This document shows positions 4,794 through 56,842 of a stretch of 64,000 bases of DNA, piece by piece. The position numbers and the translations under genes are program-made. Origin of the DNA: Escherichia phage phT4A; the sequence record NC_055712.1; one strand, given 5' to 3'. The notes under the pieces were generated by a model. It was not told where the DNA came from, made no database searches, and saw nothing but the letters and a program-made list of their open reading frames with translations. Position 1 is the first letter of the stretch. Every line of letters starts with the position of its first letter.

Positions 4794-6179
4794 ATGAGTA
4801 ACAATACAATCAACCACGTAAGTGATAAATCCATTTACGTGACATTTGACCCAACAGGTACTGATTGGCCTGATACCATAACCAACGTACAAGATGCGTT
4901 GGAAAAAATAGGTAGTTGGGCGCGTACTGATACTGGGCTTCCTATCGCAACAACTTCTGTTCGTGGTATTGCTCAGATCGCAACCGAAGCTGATATTGAC
5001 GCTGGCACGGATAACACTAAGATTGTTACTCCGAAACTGTTAGCATATCGTATGCAGAACCCTAAAGCATCACAAACCGTATGGGGTTATACGAAGTATT
5101 CGACTGATGCGGAATCTACAACCGTAACTAACGATGCATCGTCTATTACTCCGCGATCTCTGAACTATGTGTTCAATAACCGTAAAGGTACAGAATCGGT
5201 TTGGGGTTCTTCTAAAATTGCTACCACTGCACAGGCGGTTGCTGGTACAGATAACACTGTAACTATGACTCCGCTTAAAGTCAAGCAAGCGATCGCGTCC
5301 CTGGTTCCTGTTCAGTCAAGCGCGACCGAAAGCTCGCAAGGTTTGGTACAACTGGCAACAGTTGCACAGGTTCAGGCTGGTACGATCCGTGAAGGGTATG
5401 CAATTTCACCTTATACGTTTATTCGTTTAACTGCAACTGAAAGCAACCTGGGCGTTATTCGTATCGCATCACAGGCAGAAGCAAACGCGGGTACTGATGA
5501 CACCAAAGCGATTACTGCGAAAAAATTAATCAATACCCGTGCAACTGGATCTCAGTTCGGTGTTGTCAAATTAGCAACAACTGTTGGTTATGTGGCAAAC
5601 ACTGCACTTTCTTCAAACGCTGCTGTATTACCTAGTGATCGAAATGCGGTAATTAACGGTTCTCTTTATGAGAATAGCGCAATATATAACAACAAATATC
5701 AGACGTGGACAGATCTTGATTGGCATTTCCCAGTAGGTGCTATTGTCATGACTGGTTTTCAGACTGACCACGGTAGTTTGTATATTTGTGATGGTCGCTC
5801 ACTGAATAAAAATAACTATCCGTTACTTTTTGAGCGTATAGGTTATACATTTGGTGGTGGCGGTGATTGGTTTAACCTTCCAGATTGTCGAGGCGTTGCA
5901 GTACGTGGTCATGACCGTGGACGCGGATTAAACCCTAATCGTGGGTATGGTACATATGAAGGCGATATGTTGGGCTGGCACGAACACCCATTACAGCTTA
6001 TCTACCAGAACGGCGGTAATATTCCGAAATGGCAAGCAGTTTATGAACTTAAAAGCGCCGAGAAAAACGATCAGAGTGCTCGCGTGTTTGATTCTTCCAT
6101 AACTAAAGCTACTGGTGTGGGCGGAGAAGAAACCCGCATGAAAAACATCGCATTAAACTACGTAATTCGCGTATTATAA
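4794..6179 (+). CDS. 12: short tail fibre protein gp12
   Basis: 461 aa; MSNNT..HVS, SVRGIAQIATEA, ESSQGLVQLATVAQ, REGYAISPYTF repeats and C-terminal NIALNYVIRV match T4 gp12. Confidence 0.93.
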   Translation: MSNNTINHVSDKSIYVTFDPTGTDWPDTITNVQDALEKIGSWARTDTGLPIATTSVRGIAQIATEADIDAGTDNTKIVTPKLLAYRMQNPKASQTVWGYTKYSTDAESTTVTNDASSITPRSLNYVFNNRKGTESVWGSSKIATTAQAVAGTDNTVTMTPLKVKQAIASLVPVQSSATESSQGLVQLATVAQVQAGTIREGYAISPYTFIRLTATESNLGVIRIASQAEANAGTDDTKAITAKKLINTRATGSQFGVVKLATTVGYVANTALSSNAAVLPSDRNAVINGSLYENSAIYNNKYQTWTDLDWHFPVGAIVMTGFQTDHGSLYICDGRSLNKNNYPLLFERIGYTFGGGGDWFNLPDCRGVAVRGHDRGRGLNPNRGYGTYEGDMLGWHEHPLQLIYQNGGNIPKWQAVYELKSAEKNDQSARVFDSSITKATGVGGEETRMKNIALNYVIRVL

Positions 6180-6192
6180 CAGAGGTTATTAA

Positions 6193-7945
6193 ATGATCAT
6201 CGACAAATTAAACCCGTTGCCGAAGATCCCGTTTGTTGATGGCGTCCCAGATGACGCCACGACTCAAACGAAGATTATTTGGATCAAAAACGGTGAAACT
6301 CTGGACGGTTCGCCAGATAAAGTGTCAAACACTGGTAGTCTTAACCGAACTGGTGTAAACATCCAGCAGAACGCGGTTCAGTTAGAACAAAATACCATCA
6401 CCCATAATGATAAAATCAACGAAGTAATCGATCAGGTTAACTTGATTACTGAAAACATTGATGCTATTGGTGATGAGAGCGTAATCAAAAAAAGTTAACC
6501 AGTTGGATCAGGATGTTCAGGCATTAACTTTATCTAACACCCAAACACAGAACAAGGTAGCACAGTTAACCCTTTCTGTAAATGCTCAGAACGATGAAAT
6601 TGGGGAATACGATCCAGAAAAGGATCCTAAACACCGCACAATTCGTAATGATATCATTTACATTAAGAAAGAAGTTGGTTCATATCCTGGATTTAACGTT
6701 GATGGTGATGTTGACCCCTCTTCTACTGGTACTGGCCTTAAATACCGCGTACTGAGTAACCAACGTGCTATTTCTATGCAGGAAACTCGCATAACCAAAC
6801 TGGAAGATGATTGGGCGCTTTCCGAAGTAGGACAACTGACAGAAGAGGTAAAAGAACTTCGTGCTGAAATGGGTGATTCTGGTCTTGCCACAACCCGATC
6901 AATCTATGCGCGAATCAAGATCCTTGAGGATGGTTCTATTGTAATGCAAAATGAACTTGATGCGATTAATAGTTATATCGGTCGCACGTCAGGTTCAACC
7001 AGTTCCATTAACGATCGTGTGAACAGTCTGGAAAACTCCGTTAGTTCTCTGGCTACACAAATCAATGATCCGGTAACTGGTATCACTGCACAAATTGCAA
7101 CCATTAACGGTCAAATCGGTACGGCTTCTGCTCAGGGTAGTATCCGTTATGATATTGCGGAAACTAAACGCAGATTGATGGATATGGAAATGATTCTGGG
7201 TGAATCCGGCGATGATGGATTGCAGGGACAAGTTGCGATCTTAACTGGTGACGTTGGTGAAGATTCAGATCCTACCAGTATCAAAGGCCGTTTGAGTGTT
7301 GTTGAGGGTGAATTACGCACCAACACTAGCGCACTCTGGGAACTGCAAGGCGTTGTAGGTAACTCTTCTAGTGGCCTCGTTGCAACTAGCCAGCAGATTA
7401 ACAAAGAAATCTATGGTGATGGTGTTAGTTCCGATCCTGTTACTCGCGCTGGTTTGAAAACAACAACCCGCAACCTGTTCACTCAGGTAGGAGATAACTC
7501 CGAAGGTAACGAAACGGGCATTTATGCACTGATTGCCGACCTTACTAAACGTGTTGAGGATTTAGAAGCGTTGAACATTGCACAGGCACTTGCAGATCGC
7601 GTAACTATCGAAGATCTGAATGCTAAACTGGCTCTGTACATCAAAGAAGCTGACGCCGATCTCCGTTATGAGAGCAAAAACCCGCCTCTGTCATTCGGTA
7701 CTAACCTAACTGGTGATACTGAATACACTACTGGCGATCCATTGTCTCTAAGCGTAACTATGAATGGTGGTGTTTCTCCGCTGTCTTACCAGTGGACGAA
7801 AAACGGCGTAAACGTTGGTACTGATGCTAACACATTTACCATCGATTCGCTACAGCCTTCTGATTCCGGAACTTACAAAGTAACGGTAACTGATGCAAGC
7901 CATAAAGTCATCGTTTCTGATGAACTGGCGATCACTGTCGCTTAA
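6193..7945 (+). CDS. wac: fibritin (whisker protein), interrupted by a single-base frameshift in an A7 run at 6487-6493; C-terminal Ig-like domain
   Basis: Track ORFs 6193-6498 and 6503-7945 both match T4 Wac (PFVDGxP..WIKNGE; RTIRND..IKxExGxY) and are joined by removing one A from the A7 run. Confidence 0.85.
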
Positions 7946-7953
7946 CGATTAAC

Positions 7954-7974
7954 AAGGGGCTTCGGCCCCTTTTG
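7954..7974 (+). terminator. rho-independent terminator hairpin (ggggc-ttcg-gcccc + T tract)
   Basis: GC stem with ttcg loop followed by tttt directly after the wac stop. Confidence 0.6.
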
Positions 7975-7983
7975 AGGATCTTT

Positions 7984-8910
7984 ATGATTACGAACAACCC
8001 AGCACAATTAAAAGATGAAATTCTGCGCCGTTTAGGTGCTCCGATCGTCAAAATCGAAGTGACAACCGAACAGGTTTATGACTGCATTCAACGAGCATTA
8101 GACCTATATGCAGAATATCATTACAATGGATCTAACAAAGGGTATATCATTCTCACCCTGGGGCCGGACAACCCGAAAAATATTTTCGATCTGAGTAAAG
8201 AACACATTTTCGCAATTACTAAAGTGTTGCGTACTAACATGGGTTCCCTTGTATCGATGGATGGTACTGCGGTTTATCCGTGGTTTACTGATTTCCTGAT
8301 GGGCCTTACTGGTGGTTCTCTGGGCGGTGGTGGTTGTGCATCACGTACCTACGGAATGAACGCATATGGCGCGGATATGGGCTATTTTACCCAGATGATG
8401 AGCTATCAGCGGTCAATGCAAGATCTCCTGTCTCCGCTTCCGGATTACTGGTATAACGACGACACAGGACAGTTTGCAGTATACGGAACCGTTAAAGATG
8501 GTGATATTGTTGTTATCGAAGCAATGATCAGATCCTTTGTTGATGTACCCAGTATGGTCGGTAACGTCGCTGGATACGCTACAGCGGGTTCTGATGGTGA
8601 AGATAAGCCAACTATAGCAGATATATACAATAACCCCTACAAAGCCGTCTCAGGCGGCGTGAAGGCTGGTCAAGGTACAGGCGTTCAGAGTTCATCCTCT
8701 GCGTATAACAACCGTTGGGTGAAAGATTACGCAACTGCTCTTGTTAAAGAGGTAAACGGTCAGGTGCTGGCTAAGTTTCAGGGTATGCAATTGCCTGGTG
8801 GTGTTGCTCCGGATGGAACCAGACTGATTCAGGAAGCTATGCAAGAAAAAGAAAACCTCCGTCAAGAACTTCTGTTACTGTCTGATGCACTTCCAGTGTT
8901 GATGATGTAA
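7984..8910 (+). CDS. 13: neck protein gp13
   Basis: ATG at 7984 (track start 7972 is a TTG); LKDxILRRLGAPIxxxExTxxQxYDCIQRAL matches the T4 gp13 N-terminus. Confidence 0.9.
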   Translation: MITNNPAQLKDEILRRLGAPIVKIEVTTEQVYDCIQRALDLYAEYHYNGSNKGYIILTLGPDNPKNIFDLSKEHIFAITKVLRTNMGSLVSMDGTAVYPWFTDFLMGLTGGSLGGGGCASRTYGMNAYGADMGYFTQMMSYQRSMQDLLSPLPDYWYNDDTGQFAVYGTVKDGDIVVIEAMIRSFVDVPSMVGNVAGYATAGSDGEDKPTIADIYNNPYKAVSGGVKAGQGTGVQSSSSAYNNRWVKDYATALVKEVNGQVLAKFQGMQLPGGVAPDGTRLIQEAMQEKENLRQELLLLSDALPVLMM

Positions 8911-8919
8911 GGGGGAAAA

Positions 8920-9534
8920 ATGCAATTTAGATTATATCTAGTAGAGTTTAAAACTTCTACGGGAATAAAAATATATGGAGGTAAACGCCATTCTCCATTT
9001 AATGATCCTAGACATGATTGTTATTGCGGATCTGGGGTATACATCAAACGAGCATTAAAAAAATATGGAAGAGAATGTATTGTTAATATACAATGGTCAA
9101 AACCGTTTCCAAACAAGGATTTATTAGCGGAAGCCGAAGAATTACTTGTTGATGAGTTGATAGCATCTTATGATAATTGTGTTAATTTAGTTCGTGGCGG
9201 TAAAGGAGGTGCTTCTTTTTATAATCCAGAAGATAACCCTAATTTTGGTTCTAAACGATCTATTGAATCTAAAATAAAGATGTCAGAAAAGGCAAAAAAT
9301 AGGGTTTATAGCGAGGAAGGACTAAAACGAAGACAGGAAGCCACTAGGGTCATGATTCAACACAGAAAGCCTCGTGATGTTTCTGGAAGCAAAAACCCAG
9401 CCGCACGAAGGGTAATTGTGGATGGAGTAGAATACTCAACATTGAAAGAATGTGGAGATCATTACGGGATAACTAAAAACTCCGTCTTTAGTCGAATAAA
9501 ATCTAAGAAATGGGAGGGATGGAATTATGCGTGA
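8920..9534 (+). CDS. putative Seg-like GIY-YIG homing endonuclease (degenerate GIY-YIG N-terminus, NUMOD-like C-terminal DNA-binding repeats)
   Basis: 204 aa inserted between gp13 and gp14 (no gene there in T4); N-terminus YLVEF..GIKIYGGKR, basic C-terminus with IVDGVEYSTLKECGDHYGITKNSVFSRI. Confidence 0.6.
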   Translation: MQFRLYLVEFKTSTGIKIYGGKRHSPFNDPRHDCYCGSGVYIKRALKKYGRECIVNIQWSKPFPNKDLLAEAEELLVDELIASYDNCVNLVRGGKGGASFYNPEDNPNFGSKRSIESKIKMSEKAKNRVYSEEGLKRRQEATRVMIQHRKPRDVSGSKNPAARRVIVDGVEYSTLKECGDHYGITKNSVFSRIKSKKWEGWNYA

Positions 9535-28099: not shown

Positions 28100-28633
28100 A
28101 TGGCAATTCCTTCTGTAACAATTAGCGCCAACAAAAACGAACTTTTGATTGGTGAAACTTTGACCTTAGAGGTTAAAAATACTGAACTAGATCCGGGTGA
28201 TGTGTTTCTGGCCTACCGTTGGCAAAAAGATGGTGTAGATATTCCAGGCGCAACCGCCGATACTTACACAACTACGGTTGACGGTACAACTGCTGGTGAT
28301 TATACCCTGATCTTAAAACACGGTGCTGATGAAGAATCAGCAACAGAAACCACGTCAGATACAATCACCGTGACCACTTATTCTGATGATCTCGTTTCTA
28401 AATGGACGGTTCACCCGATTCCGTGGCGTGATACCAGCTTTACCCCGATCGGTTATTGGGTACTTGATGAAATTCTGTATCAGAAAGCACAGGGTAAAGA
28501 TTGGAAAACTGATTATGCTGATTACAAGTATAGTGAGGAAGTACAAACGATCCTGAAAGCGTTCATGGAAAACGGTGAATGTGAGATCCAGGATTCACGA
28601 AACGGCTATATTCATAAAATGAGTGAAATCTAA
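28100..28633 (+). CDS. hoc: mini-Hoc: one Ig-like domain + Hoc-type capsid-binding C-terminal domain
   Basis: 177 aa; N-terminal Ig-like segment (YRWQKDG..GATADTYTTTV..GDYTL); C-terminus HPIPWR..S....GYWV(L/M)DEI...GKDWKTD...(Q/I)(D/E)SRNGYIHK resembles the T4 Hoc capsid-binding domain. Confidence 0.7.
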   Translation: MAIPSVTISANKNELLIGETLTLEVKNTELDPGDVFLAYRWQKDGVDIPGATADTYTTTVDGTTAGDYTLILKHGADEESATETTSDTITVTTYSDDLVSKWTVHPIPWRDTSFTPIGYWVLDEILYQKAQGKDWKTDYADYKYSEEVQTILKAFMENGECEIQDSRNGYIHKMSEI

Positions 28634-28643
28634 GAGGCTTTAA

Positions 28644-28919
28644 ATGGCAACTGAAAAATGGACTACGGTTCATCCTATTCCGTGGAGAAATACCAGTTTT
28701 ACATATCTTCCATACTGGCTATACGATATTATCGTTGATGCTTTTGAGAAAGGCGACGACTGGCGCGATTATGCGGAAGAAAAATATAAATTAGAGTTTG
28801 ATACTCTGAAAGAGGCGTTTGAAGATTATGGTGATATTCATGTAATCGAATCTCGTAATGGTAAACTGGTTAGTCTGTTGTCATTGACTCCTGCTCCTGA
28901 ACCAGATCCTGACCAATAA
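28644..28919 (+). CDS. Hoc C-terminal (capsid-binding) domain paralog lacking an Ig domain
   Basis: 91 aa; KWTTVHPIPWRNTSFTYLPYW..DDWRDYAEEKY...IESRNGK is paralogous to the C-terminal half of the preceding gene. Confidence 0.6.
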   Translation: MATEKWTTVHPIPWRNTSFTYLPYWLYDIIVDAFEKGDDWRDYAEEKYKLEFDTLKEAFEDYGDIHVIESRNGKLVSLLSLTPAPEPDPDQ

Positions 28920-39854: not shown

Positions 39855-40113
39855 AAGTAGAAAAANNNNNNNNNNNNNNNNNNNNNNNNNNNNNNNNNNN
39901 NNNNNNNNNNNNNNNNNNNNNNNNNNNNNNNNNNNNNNNNNNNNNNNNNNNNNNNNNNNNNNNNNAAAACGTAGGTTATGGACAGGATATACCCTGGAGG
40001 CTTTACAGGCCGACCCAGAACGTTCTAAGCTACTTCCTTACATTGATGTTCTGATTGATGGTAAGTATGAAAAAGATTTGCCAACAGAAAAAGCCGTTTC
40101 GCGGTTCAGATAA
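39851..40113 (+). CDS. nrdG: ORF interrupted by scaffold gap; the C-terminal 46 codons resemble the NrdG (anaerobic RNR activase) C-terminus
   Basis: MKVEK start overlaps the gp49 stop; after the gap ..WTGYTLEAL...VLIDGKYEKDL resembles E. coli NrdG ..WTGYKLDEL...VLVDGKF.QDL. Confidence 0.45.
39866..39965. other. scaffold gap (100 N)
   Basis: Exactly 100 N; true size unknown. Confidence 0.99.
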
Positions 40114-45500: not shown

Positions 45501-46309
45501 ATACTCGCGGCGTTGTAGCTAACGTTAAATTTCAGGCTCCTGAAATTCAGGCAACTAGCAAAGTGTCTTTAGGTAGTGATAGCGTTATTTCTGCAAGCGG
45601 TTCTAACCTTTTACTGGGGGTGAACAGTAAGACAACGCAGATCAATACATCCGATGCAGGTAACATTGTAGCGGCTGAATCTGGGAACTCTTACAAAGTC
45701 TTTACTGAGAAGAACGCGCAAACCTTGCTGAATCCTACGTATGTACGTAAAGCAGGTGATACGATGTCTGGACGGTTGACAATCAACAACAGTTCTCTTA
45801 TCATCGCAGGTCAAGCGGCTTGGTCAACTCAGGATGCAGTAAACGAAGCATCACGGGGATACTGGACAGCAGAAATTACCTCTGCTGCACAATACAACTT
45901 GCTTCCTGGTTATGCGGTTCCGGTTCTCGAACCAGATCCGATTAACCCAGATATTATGATTGTAACCCGTTATACCTACGTTAAAGCACCTGGTACGTTA
46001 ACTCAGTTTGGTAACGGAACCGCATACACTTATCAGATTTGGGCACCTCGTCCGACCTCTGGTACTGGTGTTAACGCGTTGGCGCAATCCTTCTGGATCC
46101 GTCAAATGAATCCAATTACAGGTAAATTTGATGAATGGGGCCGCATGTATACGAGCAACAACCCGCCTACTGCTGGTGAAATTGGGGCAACGTCTGCTGT
46201 TGGTACTACGGTTAAAAACATGACTGTTACTGATTGGATCAAAGTTGGTAATGTTAAGATTTACCCAGATCCGGTTACTCAGACAGTTAAATTTGAGTGG
46301 GTGGCATAA
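42536..46309 (+). CDS. 34: long tail fibre proximal subunit gp34
   Basis: 1257 aa from the ATG at 42536; N-terminus GLDAAGEK(V/I)INV..ADRNT.SDGVNVD, QQYDPTRGY, TATETRRG(I/L)A repeats and C-terminal PDPVTQTVKFEWV match T4 gp34. Confidence 0.95.
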   Translation: MVAKSFRARSGLDAAGEKVINVGKADRNTLSDGVNVDFFNEFNGIQQYDPTRGYSQDMAIIYARRIWYAKQNIASPAGAFDESKWIATRNDPKWVYSNVTTPDGSIIDSGSYIMADGRFTELLYLLPDNPTEGDVITFKDCGGLVGVNSILVKSNTRQIRLRAVQSAQYRLTHPYMIATFIYNGNVWRVSEALDNRDSEIVNATGTGSFQLQSGMTVFRNSATGKITLQLPKYANDGDVITTYDADKMNSINVAVLQIYPGSGHTISDGASTGVTSVTSQKSGFGMFIFDAQNSQWKVYDADNRVRLRRIYSDLNAVPNDYVFVTANPSGAVPNVTVTLPTDVADGDRVYVSLYMMGKNQNCTIKVKDGTTDKIRTNKNMMQFPQRKDYPPDDWFSVTSLAFNAGSDYLPYIEFSYLKATKEWVVANYRPIVERVDATNRTRTGVIALAAQAEVNKNLEDNPNDETAITPMTLANKTATETRRGIARLATTAEVNKLSTDTYLDDVIVTPKKLNERTATETRRGLAEIATQAETNGSTDDITIVTPKKLHNRIASPTLTGILALVATGGTANTNTDRAQAGTGIYDHSDYQKAVTPKTLREYKATELQSGAVWLANLNEVINGTVASSNIPTVVTPEMLHKKTSTDARIGLIEIATQAETNAGTDYTRAVTPKTLNDRTATEGLTGIIAIATTAEVSAGTVTNKAIVPSKLKGYLDDTSHITVATADGLTQSGTIWTTVNIGIQSATETQRGTLRVATQSETNAGTLDTVFVTPKKLHAKKATESAEGIIQVATAAETTAGTVANKAVSPKNLKNTIQVDTSWQATDLVRGTVKLSKGAGTWSGNDVAGSTLPDDGYAAVGVAVSPYELNLTLKHYLPIGAKAVDADKLDNLDSSQFIRRDVAQTVNGALTLTQTTTVQANINSTADASFRVMNVNGDLNVGDGSSMGKLRLNGGSANDWSIQASAASGRIAMISTGNTSTVHLSVYNDTRGVVANVKFQAPEIQATSKVSLGSDSVISASGSNLLLGVNSKTTQINTSDAGNIVAAESGNSYKVFTEKNAQTLLNPTYVRKAGDTMSGRLTINNSSLIIAGQAAWSTQDAVNEASRGYWTAEITSAAQYNLLPGYAVPVLEPDPINPDIMIVTRYTYVKAPGTLTQFGNGTAYTYQIWAPRPTSGTGVNALAQSFWIRQMNPITGKFDEWGRMYTSNNPPTAGEIGATSAVGTTVKNMTVTDWIKVGNVKIYPDPVTQTVKFEWVA

Positions 46310-47245
46310 TGTCAAACTTAATGGCGGGGTTCGGCCCCGATTTTGTAGAAACGCAAATTCTATCGGAAACAAACAGCGTAACTTACAGAATAACCGCAAA
46401 GGCAACACATCCCAATGCGGTTCCTAATCAGTATGAGTTTACACTAAATCAAAAGGCGGTAGGGACACCGCCTAGTGTTGGGATCAACGTATGGAGAATT
46501 AACAATGCTGTAGTTGATCCAATTAAAACCTTCACATTATCGAATGATAATTCAGCAACTGCAAACAAAGCGTTTGTTGAATATATGGATGCTCAACCTT
46601 CTGGGCTGTATTTGATAATGACTAACGGTGAATACAAAACAAGCCAAATCGTTGATGATTGGTTTGCTAAAAACAGATCCGTTATGTGGCAAGGCGCTGA
46701 TTTCGCTCAGAGATTCCCAAATTCTGCATATGTTGCATTGTATGGGGCTTCAAAATCTCGTATACTGATTGAATCGTTTTACGCGAACGATGGAGTTTTA
46801 AAAGAAGATTCACGCGCATCAATCGATCTTGTCTATGATAACGTTGGTGATGTTGGGCGAACTGGTGTACCTTTCCGATCTGTTGAAGATACGGAAGAAT
46901 ACAATTCAACCAATGGATCTGAATATAAAGTATATCCTGTTGCAAACCCAGTGATCTCTAAACTGGCTGATTATGGTATGGCTCCTGGATTAGCTATGAT
47001 GATTGCTGGTGATTTTTACGCCAGCAAAGCATTATTGGATGCTGGATCAACAACAAGGGTTACTGTTCGATGGTTTACGGGTACTGCTCAAACTTCATCA
47101 TCGGTGATTGAAGTTCCTGCAAATAAACCTGATGAGTGGTTACGATTTGAACAGTTCTATACGATCCCTAGTGGTTGTGATGGATTTAACGTTGCTGTAT
47201 CTCGTTATCCTAAACCCGCTACGGATAGTTTATCTGCGTATCCGT
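46309..47245 (+). CDS. 35: long tail fibre hinge protein gp35 (3' end lost in scaffold gap), assigned by position
   Basis: ATG overlaps the gp34 stop; 312 codons before the gap (T4 gp35 is 372 aa); the track's 1640-aa ORF is an artefact of reading through N. Confidence 0.55.
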
Positions 47246-47345
47246 NNNNNNNNNNNNNNNNNNNNNNNNNNNNNNNNNNNNNNNNNNNNNNNNNNNNNNN
47301 NNNNNNNNNNNNNNNNNNNNNNNNNNNNNNNNNNNNNNNNNNNNN
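47246..47345. other. scaffold gap (100 N)
   Basis: Exactly 100 N; probably hides the gp35 3' end, possibly gp36, and the first codons of the distal fibre gene. Confidence 0.99.
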
Positions 47346-50300
47346 TTTAGCAAAAATTCAATTCCTACGTAGCACAGTTGCGGGGAAAACACCTACTACA
47401 AGTCAGCTTGCAGATGGTGAACTGGCGATCAACATGGCTGATTATGCCATTTACACGAAAAATGGTTCTTCGATCGTTCAGTTAGCGGGTAAAGGTATCC
47501 CAGAAACAAATACCAAAAAATTAACAGTAAATGGGCCTAGTGCTCTTAATGATACCGTTACCGTAGCGGAAGGTAAAACTATTACTTTCACCAACGCGGA
47601 TTTGAGCGGGGGTATGGTTCGTCATATCACTGGTAAAAACGCGCTTAATGATGGTTGGTACATCGGTTCTGGTGGTGAGAGCAATAAAGGGTTTTTAGAA
47701 ATCGGTACAATTGATGACGGTGATGAAGAGATCCGTTTCGTTTCCCGTGGTTCTGGTGATACTGTTCGTCGTACTCTGAAACTTATTGATTCCGGTGGTA
47801 ACACTCGCGTACCAGGTAACATCTATATTGATGAAGCTATGGGCGGTGGTGGTTCTGCTTTTATTTCAAAAAACAAAGCATATTTCGGTGCTGGCGGTGC
47901 TGATATCTATATGCGTAACACTGCTGGCGGTGCGACAAATCAGTTAACGATCACTGATGGCGGTGAATTGCTGTTTCAAGCAAAACCTGTATACTGGGAC
48001 GGTCGTAAACCGACTTTAACCGAATTGGGGATCGGGCGGGTTGAAAACGCGCGTCAAATGCAGCAAGACAATTGGCCTATAACTACAGGTAATGAAACCC
48101 GATGGGTTAAAGTTGCTCTTTTAAAAGATCCTGGCTCAGGTCATAGTCGCTTGCAACTGATGGTGACTAACGGCGGTAACTATGGTTCTACACGCGGATC
48201 GTTCGATTTTATCGATTGTTCTGCTCGTAGTATGCCTTCAACATTAACGGCTGCAAATATTCGTTCTTATCTGCAAATTCGTCGATTGGGCGATCCGGCA
48301 ATGGATGACACTAACCAGATGCGTTATAGTTTGGTTCGCACATCCGAAGGTTTGGAATTGTGGTTTACTCAAAGATCGTTCATCGGTAGTACAAAAATTG
48401 CTCTGTTATCTACGGCTGGCGTGACTGAATATTATATTCCTAGTGGATATACATCACAAACAACCGCTCCGGATGGTTTGATCGAGAGTAAGCCTATTCG
48501 TATCTATGACGAAATGAACAAACCTAGCCTTGACGATGGTACTGATGGTATTCTGTCTGTTGCTAAAGGTGGTACAGGCGCAAGTACAGCGGCTGCTGCT
48601 CGCACAAACTTAGGTTTGGGTACTGCTGCAACCCGTGATGTTGGTACAGGTTCCGGACAAGTAATGCTTGTTGGTGCTTACGGTTTAGGCGGTAAGGGTA
48701 CATCATATAGCATCGCAAATGCTCGCGACTTCCTGAAACAACTGCGTACTGATGGTTCTCAGTTCATGCGAAATACGCTTGGTACTGACATTAACTATGG
48801 TATGGGCGCAAGTTTTTATAGTTCCGTATCAGATGTTCATGCAGTGATCTCGGTTGATTGGAATACTGGTCGCGTTAAAGTTGGTGCAACTAATGATACT
48901 AACCTTAACTCAGATACAGGAAGAATCAACTTCCAGGAACTGTACGGTACTGCATTTAAACCGACTCCGGATGACGTAGGGGCTGTTGCACGTGCTGGTG
49001 ATACGATGTCTGGTGATCTGACGATCTCTAAAGTGTCGCCTGGTTTCCATTTGAATGCTGAGAGCGGAAACTCCGTAATTTGGTTTAAGTATAAAGGGGT
49101 TGAAAGTGGTGCTGTGTGGGCGTTGCCTAATACTGCCTCTTCTGGTGAAGTTCGCATTCGTGCCAGAACGTCGGGCGGAACGACTGGGGGCGAATTCTCA
49201 TTTAAATCAGACGGTACATTTACATCACCTGGTAATATCAATATTACTAGCGGCGCTTTCAACGGTAAAAGTGTCAATACTCAGTATGCGAACTTTAATA
49301 ACACAAGTTCAACAACAACCGAACAAACCGTTTCTATTAGTGGTTCGCAGCACACTCCTCTGTTACTGAATAGACCGACTAACTCGAACTTGTCTATCGG
49401 GTTTAAACTTTCCGGAATGAACATGAAACGTTTGGGTATCGATGTAAACGGTGATATTCGTTACGGTGAAGCCGAAAACCAGACACAAAACGCATGGCTG
49501 TTGACTTCGGATACCATAAACAGATGGAGTGTTAACTTCGGGCGTGATATTAACGTTGCAGGTGTAGTTAATTCAACTGGTGGATTTACTGGCCCTGTTA
49601 CTGCATATGATTTGACCGGGGTAACTCAGGATCTTGATGCTTTAACATTGAACAATGCCGAACCAGGACATATTAAAGTTTATTCGTGCCGTAGTATGGG
49701 TGGCGGTGATAACATCACCAATAAACCTTCCGGCGTAGGTGGTAACTTTATTGTTATCGTTGAATGTCTCCGTAAAGTCGGCGATACTGATTACACTAAC
49801 CGTCAAGTATTACGCGCATCGGACAATAAACGCAGTTGGGAACGTTGGTTTACTGTTAGCGGTACTGCTAAAGCCTGGACACCGTGGAGAATGAACGTTG
49901 TTAGCGGAAACGATGACGATGTATCATTTAAATCTGTTACCACAACTACAGGAAACCTGAACAGTGGAAACGATCTGATTGTTGCGAACAACGCTCGCGT
50001 AGGTGGCAACTTAGGGTTAGGTGGTGCTTCTTCCACGACATACACTGATAAAGGTGTTGTGATTGGTAACGGTAGTGCGCTGTTAGAATCCACTGATGGT
50101 CGCATGATTATTGGTAGTTCTGGTGCTGGTCGTGCTGTTGAATTGCGTCCTGGTGGCCCAACTCAAACCAACAACGGGATCAAAGTGACTGCTACCTCTG
50201 GAAGTGGTGGTGATACTGCGATCGAGTATGCGCAAGGGGTGAAAATCCGGGCAAATAACGGTGGTGCGTTGATTATTTCTGCTAAAGCTGGACAAACGAT

Positions 50301-51219
50301 TTATCTACGTCCTCAAGGAGATACATCCAGCACAAACGAAACAAGGATTGATTCTAGTGGTAACATGATAGTTAATGGTAATATCAGTGCAAACGGAAAT
50401 ATGTCTGCTACTGGTACGTTAACTGTTTCTGGTGCTACTACATTAAACAACACATTAACGGTTAATAATGTAGGGCCAATCGAGAAACGGGGGATCAGGA
50501 CGTATACAGAAGGTTCTGTTACTGTCAACGAAACCGACGGCATTACGATGTTTGGTAATGGCACAATTCATGGCACAATGCGATTAGTTGAGAGAGTGAA
50601 TAATACTACTTTCATCGGTCTGCAAACTTCCATTAATGACACTACAAACGGTTGGTTTGAATTCCACCACACAGGAAAATTCAAATCAAACAATATCGAA
50701 GCCTCTGGTAATATTGTTAGTTTGACTGGTTCCATTGGTGCTGTTGGTGCATTGACTGTAACGGCTCCTTCTTCTGATAACGGTACTGACCATATTTGGT
50801 TCCGTAACTCTGATGGATCTGAACGTGGTGTTATCTATATGCCAGGCAATGCTAATATTGGCGGTTTCCGCGTTCGTGGTGTGGAATGGCAATTTGATGG
50901 CGGTGCTAGTCAGTTTATCGGCCCTGGTGCTCGTTGGCGTATTCACCCTGATGGTAATATTCAGGCTGATGTTTTTAGCGGTTATCTGAATAACTACATC
51001 AATGATCGGTTTAACGCGTGTGCTCAGTGGGTTCGTACTGGTGCTCAACAGGACTTTGGTCAGATCGGTCGTCCTGCTCCTGGTTTAACAGTTCCTGCTG
51101 GTTGGGTTTTAGTTGGTCTTAACGCCAACGGTAACGAAGCTAACCAGAACATGCAGTTAATCGGTGGTCGTTTGCAGGTATGGAAGAATAACGTTCAATG
51201 GGTTGATTCTGCAACTTGA
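47346..51219 (+). CDS. 37: long tail fibre distal subunit, gp37-type (fibre A; 5' end in gap)
   Basis: Begins (truncated) LAKIQFLRSTVAGKTPT.SQLADGELAINM, matching the T4 gp37 N-terminus MATLKQIQFKRS..AGTRP...LAEGELAINL; about 1290 aa; no C-terminal chaperone domain; followed by a gp38-like chaperone. Confidence 0.8.
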
Positions 51220-51226
51220 TAAAATA

Positions 51227-51240
51227 GGGGCTTCGGCCCC
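51227..51240 (+). terminator. GC hairpin (ggggc-ttcg-gcccc) after fibre A, weak T tract
   Basis: Same hairpin type as other terminators in the window but followed by ttcattc. Confidence 0.35.
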
Positions 51241-51261
51241 TTCATTCTTAAAGGTAAAATA

Positions 51262-51663
51262 ATGATTGTTAAACAAATGAAAGGTATTCGCTGGCATCAT
51301 AATTTTGAAGGTGGTGCTTACTATCGTGATTGTAATGACAAGTGCTGGTATGAATTTCGTAATTCTTTGGATAAAAATTCCCATATCATTATAGTTGATG
51401 CTAAAACCAATAAAATCATTAACTATTATAACGGTGATGATCCTACGATGATTGGATTGTTTGCTGATAAAGAAATGATTCTTAATGTGTATCAGCTATC
51501 AGAATTTCCTGTTAATGACTGGGGAGAATTCTCTAAGCGAGAATTTAAGTTCGAAGATGATAAGGTAGTCATGACGAAAGATGTTGAACTTCCGAAATCT
51601 CGAACAAAAGAAGATATCATGGCAGATTTGATAAAACTTCAAAAAGAGCTAGAGGTAATGTAA
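51262..51663 (+). CDS. 38: tail fibre assembly chaperone, gp38-like
   Basis: 133 aa directly after fibre A; pattern similarity to the T4 gp38 chaperone (..IIIVDAKTNKIINYY.. vs ..YAVVFDERTQDWIY..; ..FPVNDWGEF.. vs ..FDEPGEFDIW..). Confidence 0.5.
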   Translation: MIVKQMKGIRWHHNFEGGAYYRDCNDKCWYEFRNSLDKNSHIIIVDAKTNKIINYYNGDDPTMIGLFADKEMILNVYQLSEFPVNDWGEFSKREFKFEDDKVVMTKDVELPKSRTKEDIMADLIKLQKELEVM

Positions 51664-51669
51664 TTTCTA

Positions 51670-51747
51670 AGGCTACCTATATGGTAGCCTTTTTGTTGTA
51701 TGCTAAATATACCTATAGCAACCTAAGAAGAGTCTTATAAAATGGCT
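51670..51747 (+). repeat. intergenic element copy 1: terminator hairpin (aggctacc...ggtagcct + T5) + AT box + ATGGCT start
   Basis: About 90% identical to 56445-56513. Confidence 0.8.
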
Positions 51748-51847
51748 NNNNNNNNNNNNNNNNNNNNNNNNNNNNNNNNNNNNNNNNNNNNNNNNNNNNN
51801 NNNNNNNNNNNNNNNNNNNNNNNNNNNNNNNNNNNNNNNNNNNNNNN
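51748..51847. other. scaffold gap (100 N)
   Basis: Exactly 100 N; flanks share ggct, compatible with a direct join giving ATG GCT GAT TTA (MADL...). Confidence 0.99.
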
Positions 51848-54800
51848 GGCTGATTTAGCAAAAATTCAATTCCTACGTAGCACAGTTACGGGGAAAACAC
51901 CTACTACAAGTCAGCTTGCAGATGGTGAACTGGCGATCAACATGGCTGATTATGCCATTTACACGAAAAATGGTTCTTCGATCGTTCAGTTAGCGGGTAA
52001 AGGTATCCCAGAAACAAATACCAAAAAATTAACAGTTGATGGGCCTAGTGCTCTTAATGATACCGTTACCGTAGCGGAAGGTAAAACTATTACTTTCACC
52101 AACGAGGATTTAAGTGGTGGAATAACTCGTCATATCGTTGGCAAATGCGCCACTAATGATGGTTGGTACATCGGTTCCGGTGGTACAAGCAACAATGGTA
52201 TTCTTGAAATCGGTACTATTGATGACGGCGTTGAAACCATCCAGATCGTACAGCGCGGCGCAGGCAACGTTGAAGCCAGAAAGTTAGTCTTGCTTGATGG
52301 TTCGGGTAATACGAATCTTCCTGGTGATTTAAGATTAACCACCAATAAAGCTGTTAAAATTTCGAATGGAAGCACTCTTACACTAGAAATGGGCGTAGGT
52401 GCTAACGATGTATACATTAAAAACCTGAAAGGCTCTGGCGTTCTTCAATTAACCAATGATAGTAATCTGTCGTTCAGAAATTACCAGGTTTATTATGCCA
52501 TGAGTGGAAAAGGCCCTGGTAAAGATGGTACTCTTCTGACTAATGTAGAAAACGAGCGCCAACTTAAACAGGATAATTTCCCTATAACTACAGGCAACGA
52601 AGCTCGGTGGACTAAAGTTGCTCTTTTAGTAGACCCCGGCTCAGGGCCGAGTCGCTTGCAACTGATGGTGACGAACGGCGGTAACTTTGGTTCTACGCGT
52701 GGCTCTATCGACTTTATCGATTGTAGCGCTAGAAACTTTCCCGCAACATTAACAAGCAGTAACATTCGTTCTTATCTGCAAATTCGTCGAATCGGCGATC
52801 CTGGACTTGATGGCACAAACCAATTACGTTATAGTCTAGTTCGTACCTCTGAGGGTTTAGAACTGTGGTTTACACAACGCGCGTTTATTAGTGGTGTTAA
52901 AGTTGCTCTGCTGTCTATTGATGGTAATACTAAATATTATCTGCCTACTGGTTACACGACTACTTCAACTGCTCCAGAAGGTTTAGTTGAGAGTACGGCT
53001 ATTCGTATCTATGATGAGGTAAACAAGCCTAATCTCGACGATGGTACTGATGGTATTCTGTCTATTGCTAAAGGTGGTACAGGTGCAAGTACAGTAGATG
53101 CCGCTCGCACAAACTTAGGTTTGGGTACGGCTGCAACCCGTGATGTTGGTACAGGTTCCGGACAAGTAATGCTTGTTGGTGCTTACGGTTTAGGCGGTAA
53201 GGGTAAATCCTATAGTAGTTCAACCTCTCGCGATTACCTGAAACAACTGCGTGCTGATGGTTCTCAGTTCATGCGAAATACGCTTGGTACTGAAATTAAC
53301 TATGGTATGGGCGCAAGTTTTTATAGTTCCGTATCAGATGTTCATGCGGTGATCTCGGTCGATTGGAATACTGGACGCGTTAAAGTTGGTGCGACTAATG
53401 ATGCTAACTTGAACTCAGATACCGGAAAAATCAGCTCTCAGGAACTGTACGGTACTGCATTTAAACCAACTCCGGATGACGTAGGGGCTGTTGCTCGTAC
53501 TGGTGATACAATGTCTGGTGATTTGCTTATCAGTAAAGAGTCACCTGGGTTATTTTTGAATGCCACTAATGATACCGGAAACTCTGTAATTTGGTTTAGA
53601 AACAAAGGAGTTGAGACAGGTGCTGTATGGGCAATACCTAACACCGAGTCTTCGGGTGAGGTTCGAATTCGTGCTAGAACGACTGCTGGGGTCACAGGCG
53701 GCGAGTTCAAATTTAAATCTGACGGTACATTTACATCACCTGGTGATGTAAATATCACCAGCGGTGCTTTCAACGGTAAAAGTATCAACACTCAGTATGC
53801 GAACTTTAATAACACAAGTTCAACCACAACCGAACAAACCGTTACTATTAGTGGTTCACAGCACACTCCGCTGTTACTGGATAGACCGACTAACGCGAAC
53901 TTGTCTATCGGGTTTAAACTTTCCGGAATGAACATGAAACGTTTGGGTATTGATGTAAACGGTGATATTCATTACGGTGAAGCAGAAAACCAGACAAACA
54001 ACGCATGGCTGTTGACTTCGGATACAGTAAACAGATGGGTTGTTAACTTTGGTCGTGATATTAACGTTGCTGGTGTGGTTAATTCGACTGGTGGATTTGC
54101 TGGCCCTGTCGCAGCGTATGATTTGGCTGATGTTAAACTAGATCTTAATGATTTAACGCTAACTGGCGCTACCCCAGGCCATGTTAAAGTTTATTCATGC
54201 CCTAGTATGGGTGGCGGTAATAACATCACCAATAAACCTTCTGGCGTCGGTGGTAACTTTATTGTTATTGTTGAATGTCTCCGTAAAATAAACGATACCG
54301 ATTACACTAACCGTCAAGTATTACGCACATCTGATAGTAAACGCAGTTGGGAACGTTGGTTAACTGTTAGCGGTACTTCTAAAATCTGGACACCGTGGCG
54401 TGTTAATATTGTTAATGGGAATGATGACGATGTATCATTTAAATCCGTTACCACGACTACAGGAAACCTGAACAGCGGAAATGATTTGATTGTTGCTAAC
54501 AACGCTCGCGTAGGTGGTAACTTAGGGTTAGGTGGTGCTTCTTCAACGAAATACGCTGATAAAGGTGTTGTGATTGGCAAAGGTAGTGCTCTGTTAGAAA
54601 CTACTGATGGTCGTGTGATTATTGGTAGTTCTGGTGGTGGTAATGCTGTTGAATTGCGTCCCGGTGGCCCAACTCAAACCAACAACAGGATCAAAGTAAC
54701 TGCTACCTCTGGAAGTGGTGGTGATACTGCGATCGAGTATGAACAAGGCGCTAAAATTCGTGCTAATAATGGTGGTGATTTGATTGTTTCTGCTAAAGCA

Positions 54801-55823
54801 GGTCAAGCAATTTATCTGCGACCGCAAGGTGATGCATCCAGCACAAACGAAACCCGTATTGATGCAAACGGTAGTATCACGATTAACGGCAATATTAACG
54901 CCAACGGTACATTAACTTGTACTGGTGGTGCTGTTAACGGAGACTTGACTGTATCAGGAAAAGTAGATATCACTGGAAACCAGTTAAAAACTACATCGCT
55001 CTGGGTTACTGGAGATGCTGCTGTTAACGGTGTTTTAACTGTTGATGGAAGGGCTAGGTTTAATCAAGAGTTCATTGTATCAACTTCGGTTAACGTCCAG
55101 AACACTGGTAACAGTCATTTGGTCTTCCGTAAAGCTGATGGTACAGAAAAAGGACTTATTTGGGCTGATGAGCCTGGTAGCGTTAGTATAAGAGCAGGTG
55201 GTGTCTCTGGGCCAACGTGGAATTTCTGGAACAGTGGTTCTTGCCAATTCCCAGGTGCTATTAGTAACTTTAATGGTGTTAATAGTACTACTAATTACCC
55301 TGGCGGCGGAAGTGGCGCGTATTTAAATACCGCTGGCTTAACAAGTAGATTTAGTAATGGTGCTTATGTTTCCTTATACTTCCAAGAATATGTAGGAAAT
55401 TATCACCAGGCTATTCTTAATGTTAACGGCTATGGTCGAGATGACAATTTCTATTTCAGGGCCGGCGGTGACTTCTTCTGTACTCGTAACGGTTCTTTTG
55501 ATAACGTTGAGATTCGTTCTGACCGTAGAGCCAAATCGGATATCAAAGTTATTGAAAATGCTTTAGAAAAGGTTGAAACATTATCTGGTAATACTTATGA
55601 ACTTCATAACACTTCTGGCGGTACTACTCGTTCTGCTGGGTTGATTGCTCAGGAAGTTCAAGAAATCTTACCGGAAGCAGTTACTCAAGATAATGAAGAA
55701 GATGGCGGTATGCTTCGTCTGAATTATAACTCAGTAATTGCACTTCTTGTTGAATCTGTTAAAGAGCTTTCTGCCGAAGTTAAAAATCTTAAAGCAGAAA
55801 TTGAAGAACTTAAATCTAAATAA
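51848..55823 (+). CDS. second gp37-type distal tail fibre (fibre B) with C-terminal S74-type intramolecular chaperone domain
   Basis: Reads (M)ADLAKIQFLRSTVTGKTPT... from the gap edge; co-linear with fibre A at 70-95% aa identity over about 1100 aa, then a different tip. Confidence 0.8.
55518..55823 (+). other. C-terminal intramolecular chaperone (peptidase S74-like) domain of fibre B
   Basis: SDRRAKSDIK.IENALEKVETLSG.TYEL......RSAGLIAQEVQEILPEAV...........LNYNSVIALLVESVKEL matches the T5 pb1 / endosialidase CIMCD consensus. Confidence 0.8.
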
Positions 55824-56742: not shown

Positions 56743-56842
56743 NNNNNNNNNNNNNNNNNNNNNNNNNNNNNNNNNNNNNNNNNNNNNNNNNNNNNNNNNN
56801 NNNNNNNNNNNNNNNNNNNNNNNNNNNNNNNNNNNNNNNNNN
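56743..56842. other. scaffold gap (100 N), probably spurious
   Basis: Flanked by a 237-bp exact overlap. Confidence 0.95.

Follow-up and report, generated by a model that had tools for sequence, protein, structure and literature searches.

Evidence for an immunoglobulin-like domain in place of a T4-type foldon in the fibritin of Escherichia phage phT4A

The wac locus and its reading frame

We analysed a window of 64,000 nucleotides from Escherichia phage phT4A (NC_055712.1), in which two consecutive open reading frames are flanked by a gp12-like gene for the short tail fibre (4794..6179) and a gp13-like gene for the neck (7972..8910). According to the ORF list, the first (6193..6498, + strand, 101 aa) is an N-terminal wac fragment that encodes the neck-attachment domain and the first coiled-coil segment and is truncated by a frameshift. 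The second (6503..7945, + strand, 480 codons, frame +2, open from 6485) carries the remainder of wac, comprising the segmented coiled coil and a C-terminal immunoglobulin (Ig)-like domain. Its product ends in ...NPPLSFGTNLTGDTEYTTGDPLSLSVTMNGGVSPLSYQWTKNGVNVGTDANTFTIDSLQPSDSGTYKVTVTDASHKVIVSDELAITVA, the peptide quoted in a preliminary description of this DNA and located exactly where that description had put it, and the stop codon occupies 7943-7945. In relatives, intact wac encodes a single 583-aa protein, and the order gp12-wac-gp13 is also annotated in VAC13, RB43, leN, and T4. Directly 3' of the wac stop, we read from the sequence a terminator-like GGGGC-TTCG-GCCCC hairpin followed by TTTT (7956..7973, + strand); a terminator consensus scan made no call at 7956-7973, because the T tail is only four bases long. 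Between gp13 and gp14, which adjoin in VAC13, the window also contains a 204-aa ORF (8920-9534) that is absent from VAC13. It matches an I-TevI-type DNA-binding domain at 25.4 bits, just under the Pfam cut-off of 27, and is likely an insertion of a GIY-YIG/Seg-like homing endonuclease.

A megablast search with 6193-7945 matched 109 phage records, nearly all of them Klebsiella phages of one close group. The best matches, PTP25, VAC13, and KP1LMA, are 99.9% identical and are all annotated as fibritin or neck whisker, and the VAC13 record is classified as Straboviridae; Slopekvirus. A homologue search with full-length Wac returned, among the 120 matches listed, only Slopekvirus variants at least 98% identical. 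BLASTP aligned residues 9-489 of intact Wac with residues 6-466 of T4 Wac at 28% identity over 490 columns (E 1e-46), and residues 275-380 of the 6503..7945 product matched Pfam Fibritin_C at 48.8 bits against a cut-off of 21; homology of the shaft to the segmented coiled coil of T4 was taken from these two results and not from heptad periodicity. The N-terminal neck-attachment domain of about 50 aa is present, with LPKIPFVDGVP...IIWIKNGETLDG pairing with T4 LNDLPFVDGPP...ISWIKNGEEILG, and its conserved motif PFVDG...WIKNGE is encoded within 6193..6498. Judged by its sequence and its position, the gene is wac, a member of the T4-type fibritin family.

The break in the reading frame falls at an A7 homopolymer (6487..6493, + strand), which in the alignment with VAC13 (A6) is one A longer than in relatives. 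The extra base brings in a stop at 6496-6498 and shifts translation to frame +2, so that the sequence as it stands strictly does not encode the full-length protein. Taken at face value, this difference between A7 here and A6 in VAC13 would mean that wac is truly inactivated and that full-length fibritin and its Ig tip are either missing or made only through slippage on A7; the phage would then be a whiskerless variant, a state consistent with the viability of T4 wac mutants. We consider this unlikely. A 76-base query across the A-run had an exact match in none of the 107 deposited Slopekvirus records (best 75/76), and the rest of wac is 99.9% identical to its relatives, with no further lesion. 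Errors in homopolymer length are more common than any other sequencing error, and the sequence is a draft of limited quality, with a gp37-like block that occurs twice and four runs of exactly 100 N (39866-39965, 47246-47345, 51748-51847, and 56743-56842), which mark the window as scaffolded. Because the extra base appears in none of the 107 relatives and the scaffold contains such runs, the one-base insertion is most likely an assembly error, and we therefore used intact Wac for the analyses below.

Other parts of the window are affected by its draft state. Across the first N gap, about 5 kb of the nrdD region is gone in comparison with VAC13, and the second gap removes the end of gp35 and the entire gp36. 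A "1640-aa ORF" at 46297..51219 is an artefact that reads through N. The two gp37-like (distal long tail fibre) blocks, at 47346-51747 and 51848-54863, both align to the single gp37 of VAC13, with identities of 94% and 86-92%, so that a true duplication seems less likely than variant contigs misplaced in the scaffold or a mixed population of phages.

The C-terminal domain and its junction with the shaft

The C-terminus of Wac consists of an 84-aa I-set/Ig_3 Ig-like domain without a Cys pair (7691..7942, + strand), identified by Pfam, AlphaFold2 (AF2), Foldseek, and PDB sequence matches. It is preceded by the last predicted shaft helix, which includes LYIKEADADL (7607..7663, + strand; residues 3-21 of the modelled fragment 7601-7942, block-mean pLDDT 86-90), and by a short non-helical linker, RYESKNPPL, from shaft to Ig (7664..7690, + strand; residues 22-30). 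Three Pfam families exceeded their gathering cut-offs in 7661-7942, namely Ig_3 (PF13927; 38.7 bits, cut-off 30), Ig_2 (PF13895; 31.9, cut-off 27), and I-set (PF07679; 28.4, cut-off 23.7). Modelled with an 82-row alignment of related Ig domains, the fragment 7601-7942 had a mean pLDDT of 94.2, and its residues 31-113 (7691-7939) formed a beta-sandwich with pLDDT 95-98; AF2 on 7481-7942 as a single sequence, without an alignment, gave a pLDDT of 45. The top Foldseek matches in the PDB were Ig-like domains only, led by the decoration protein of phage N4 (9LBZ, 9E99), Shigella phage Moo19 (9D7Z), Sidekick, and titin, and the match to the Ig-C2 domain of MALT1 (3BFO) had a TM-score of 0.90 and an rmsd of 1.5 A. 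A sequence search of the PDB with the Wac Ig retrieved a four-Ig phage protein (9NCF, 2e-17), T5 pb10 (8ZVI) and the isolated pb10 Ig domain (5LXK; both about 1e-11), a "putative neck whiskers protein gp24" (9OCC, 2e-8), and RB49 Hoc (3SHS, 4e-4).

Hallmark residues of the fold are present. All 82 rows of the alignment have the core Trp (YQW), and the D-x-G-x-Y motif is found as DSGTY, with its Tyr in at least 90% of rows. The canonical disulphide is missing, as there is no Cys in the 84 Ig residues and Val takes the Y-x-C position (YKVTV). A missing Cys pair is usual for phage Ig-like domains, and the Pfam Ig models do not demand one. Precomputed database annotation already contains PF13927/PF13895, and one UniRef cluster is named "Ig-like domain-containing protein". 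Outside phages, the closest Ig relatives in the representative search (P0121, P0123, P0124, P0164, and others) are giant proteins encoded in unannotated genomes and metagenomes; they are 2,000-7,400 aa long and repeat the Wac-type Ig unit (consensus ...PLxYQWxKNG...DAGxYxVxVTN...) 20-70 times in tandem.

The preliminary description had read roughly the last 85 residues of Wac as Ig-like, and had named structure prediction beyond the coiled coil and comparison with Wac of related T4-like phages as checks. Its reading agrees with what we found. The prediction gave an Ig beta-sandwich, and neither a foldon-like hairpin nor the lack of an Ig fold; in the comparison, RB43 and leN proved collinear with Wac through the coil-Ig junction. 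The same description had seen no resemblance to the T4 foldon, which is borne out by a pattern search, a profile, and the structure model. With intact Wac as query, a search among 1.84 billion representative proteins yielded about forty diverse Wac relatives, and 43 sequences (42 diverse relatives and T4) were searched for a foldon-like pattern, [..]P.D[G]..Y.R..G.W. The pattern occurred as 41 motifs in 27 of the 43, right after the shaft and often followed by other C-terminal domains, and was missing in this set from Slopekvirus-type Wac and from the RB43-type sequences P0122 and P0125. Inspection of the Slopekvirus, RB43, and leN coil-Ig junctions found no foldon-like motif. With a profile of the 41 motifs, the Slopekvirus, RB43, leN, and P0125 junctions scored -0.5 to -2.2 bits, which 0.13-0.55 of 2000 shuffles equalled; the profile returned no score for the P0122 junction.

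The alignment with T4 Wac stops where LYIKEADAD faces GYIPEAPRD, and the Fibritin_C match extends to position 81 of the 93 in its profile. For these reasons we tested the idea that a degenerate foldon survives between coil and Ig (LYIKEADADLRYESK compared with T4) and nucleates trimerisation, the Ig having been added to the foldon instead of replacing it; YIKEADADLRYE would then be the stretch for any hairpin propeller. The conservation of Y-I/T-x-E/T-x-x-A-D-x-K/R-Y/F in Slopekvirus, RB43, leN, P0122, and P0125 Wac, together with the extent of the two alignments, speaks for such a remnant. However, the stretch lacks the hallmark P-x-D-G as well as the turn Gly and the Trp, the profile does not distinguish the junctions from shuffled sequence, and the AF2 model runs the helix on through this stretch at the block-mean pLDDT given above for the last shaft helix. 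We give a surviving foldon very little credence and, on the grounds of the profile-versus-shuffle comparison and the modelled helix, rejected LYIKEADADL as its remnant, its likeness to GYIPEAPRD being superficial. Since the foldon pattern is absent, the profile does no better than on shuffles, and the model shows a helix leading into an Ig sandwich at the junction, we place the protein in the Wac family and outside its T4/JS98 foldon subtype. Taken together, the Pfam profiles, the confident structure model, the fold search, and the negative foldon profile support an Ig-like domain at the Wac C-terminus instead of a T4 foldon.

Origin of the Ig domain and its relation to Hoc

Wac aligns collinearly with the Wac proteins of RB43 and leN (762 aa each) along the shaft, across the junction, and over the first Ig domain (Ig1), after which the latter two carry two further Ig domains. 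The Wac Ig is 53% identical to Ig1 of leN Wac, 47% to Ig1 of RB43 Wac, and 46% to the Ig of P0125, a 572-aa single-Ig Wac. Among decoration proteins, identity is 45-46% to Ig3 of VAC13 Hoc (E 4e-23), 38% to T5 pb10, 34-35% to VAC13 Hoc Ig2, and 26-29% to Hoc Ig1. In a neighbour-joining tree of about 89 columns, computed with no bootstrap, the Slopekvirus Wac Ig grouped with Wac Ig1 of the RB43/leN type, and Hoc Ig3 grouped with pb10. On these comparisons, we assign the Wac Ig as the orthologue of the first of the three Ig domains in the RB43/leN fibritins, although its similarity to Hoc Ig3 of sibling phages (46%) is about as high as that to RB43 Wac Ig1 (47%), which counts against this account.

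The hoc gene of the window (28100..28633, + strand, from the ORF list) encodes a short form of 177 aa with one Ig-like module and a capsid-binding domain. It is collinear with the three-Ig Hoc of VAC13 (353 aa) minus Ig2-Ig3, which corresponds to an in-frame loss; both forms occur among Slopekviruses, the short one in KP27 and Miro. As a one-Ig form, it leaves the genome with only the Hoc Ig that is most distant from the Wac Ig. The preliminary description had credited this Hoc-like protein with a similar Ig-like module. An Ig-like module is indeed present, and the similarity is detectable by pairwise BLAST (E 1e-5) and also in an iterated profile; however, it amounts to only 28.8% identity, and no Pfam family reached E 0.01 on the window Hoc. 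A phmmer search of all window ORFs with the Wac Ig found no second copy.

Outside the Ig module, the two proteins differ. The C-terminal capsid-binding domain of Hoc has a conserved E-S-R-N-G region (PMC10385173), present as DSRNG in the window Hoc and as ESRNG in the adjacent 91-aa ORF; an ESRNG-type motif is absent from Wac, which ends with its Ig domain. Hoc and Wac have only the Ig module in common. The 91-aa ORF (28644-28919), next after hoc, encodes a paralogue of this capsid-binding domain of Hoc (WTVHPIPWR...ESRNG). RB43, with its three-Ig Wac, retains no more of Hoc than a remnant of 61 aa (L006 7353-7538).

A further proposal in the preliminary description was domain shuffling among surface-display proteins. 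With the Wac Ig as query and a threshold of E<=1e-6, tblastn matched 869 phage records, the matches lying in Wac, in Hoc-like and T5 pb10-type decoration proteins, in lambdoid tail proteins, and in other "whisker" proteins, so that the general part of this proposal stands, as a broad and ancient process. Its recent form, in which the Wac Ig would be an intragenomic copy of a Hoc Ig exchanged between the two display proteins, fits the fact that one Ig family serves both Wac and Hoc, as well as the resemblance to the three-Ig Hoc of sibling Slopekviruses, whose Ig3 is 46% identical (E 4e-23) and whose Ig2 is 35% identical. Yet Wac Ig1 of another genus matches the Wac Ig equally well or better (leN 53%, RB43 47%, P0125 46%), neighbour joining sets the Wac Ig with Wac Ig1 and Hoc Ig3 with T5 pb10, and the coil-Ig junction is collinear in RB43 and leN. 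Moreover, the window Hoc is without Ig2-Ig3 altogether, and Letarov & Krisch concluded that C-terminal swaps in fibritins are ancient. We judge a recent copy from Hoc to be quite improbable, chiefly in view of the Wac Ig1 identities and the neighbour-joining grouping. The exchange of Ig domains among display proteins is genuine but ancient, and the Wac Ig, which groups with the RB43/leN Ig1 and not with Hoc, looks vertically inherited from an RB43-type ancestor.

Architecture and comparison with known fibritins

Letarov & Krisch sorted fibritin C-termini into about eight types and described RB43-like fibritins with one Ig-like domain in KP-15 and three in RB43 (2013, PMC3797505); the three Ig domains of the RB43 fibritin are cited there as reported by Letarov et al. 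in 2005. According to the same review, folding by foldon motifs alone is confined to fibritins of the T4 and JS98 types, trimerisation and folding in RB43 depend on the C-terminal module, and Ig-bearing fibritins such as that of RB43 may act as accessory adhesins. The Ig-tipped RB43/KP15-type fibritin was therefore already described in 2005 and 2013, and our finding is correct but ordinary. KP15 is a member of this same genus and of its close group of Klebsiella phages; the Ig segment of KP15 is 97.9% identical in protein sequence to that of the window, and KP15 Wac is about 99% identical to VAC13 Wac.

We assign the feature with high confidence to the Slopekvirus fibritin (Wac, the neck whisker or collar fibre), which represents the single-Ig KP15 variant of the RB43 type. 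The chain runs from the neck-attachment domain through a T4-homologous segmented trimeric coiled coil and a linker of about nine residues to one I-set Ig, which occupies the place of the 27-residue foldon hairpin of T4. With one Ig per chain of a trimeric fibre, each whisker would end in three independent Ig domains. Fibritins with one and with three Ig domains differ by a deletion or duplication of tandem Ig units. This architecture shows that a trimeric coiled-coil fibre can dispense with the foldon kept by most Wac relatives; by analogy with what is reported for RB43, registration of the trimer may proceed through the terminal coil, the C-terminal module, or both. The Ig tip may work as a weak accessory adhesin, probably directed at carbohydrates of the capsulated host or its environment, and keep the virion close to the host surface. 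Weak glycan-directed adhesion is also the general view of phage Ig-like domains, as reported by Fraser and colleagues. For Klebsiella phage therapy, exposed whisker Ig tips and the polymorphism between one-Ig and three-Ig Hoc would be plausible modulators of adhesion and immunogenicity. The value of the finding is confirmatory, both for a fibre that dispenses with the foldon and for the placing of the domain as the orthologue of RB43 Ig1 and not as a recent Hoc copy.

In T4, the C-terminal region of fibritin touches the long tail fibre near the knee (PMC3797505). The window gp36 falls in the N gap 47246-47345, and we used VAC13 for comparison of this protein. VAC13 gp36 (L002 33449-34117) is 56.8% identical to T4 gp36 (L008 241-906) over all 222 residues, whereas the RB43-type phages leN, whose Wac has three Ig domains, and Dev_CS701 have a 759-aa gp36 (in leN, L009 15443-17722) of which just the first ~77 residues are shared. 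As gp36 is of the T4 type at full length in Slopekvirus and not in pseudotevenviruses, the type of Wac tip (Ig) and the type of gp36 are uncoupled in Slopekvirus. The C-termini of gpwac and gp36 reportedly co-vary invariably, a statement ascribed to Letarov and colleagues in 2005. Provided that this statement is right, Slopekvirus might, tentatively, be an exception to the co-variation, with a foldon-less Ig-tipped fibritin beside a fully T4-type gp36. If so, the Ig tip would not be the docking element for the long tail fibre and could serve instead as an adhesin for capsule or glycans; alternatively, an Ig domain could stand in for the foldon in pairing with a T4-type knee. The long tail fibre may dock on the shaft and not on the tip.

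Several known systems resemble the fibritin described here in part. In PDB 9OCC chain A, "Putative neck whiskers protein gp24" (238 aa), the C-terminal ~87 residues are homologous to the Wac Ig (E 2e-8), but the protein is much shorter, the whisker name is that of the depositors, and the homology to Wac is seen in the Ig part; a literature search for a paper on the 9OCC whiskers with Ig tips found none. The Ig domains of Hoc and T5 pb10 (5LXK, 8ZVI) belong to the same Ig sequence family and are likewise exposed on the virion surface, but these proteins are held on the capsid by a capsid-binding domain, whereas the Wac Ig sits at the tip of a trimeric neck fibre. T4 fibritin shares with Wac the genomic position, the Fibritin_C match, and homology that begins at residue 9 and extends through the shaft; where T4 has the foldon, an 84-residue Ig follows the last helix here, and there is no foldon hairpin. 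The closest counterpart is the KP15/RB43-type fibritin, which has the same conserved N-terminal domain, the same segmented coiled coil, and Ig-like domain(s) replacing the foldon, and from which the window gene differs by its one-base insertion. Within this type, the fibritins of RB43 and leN carry three tandem Ig domains in 762 aa, whereas that of the window has the first Ig only and measures 583 aa when intact.
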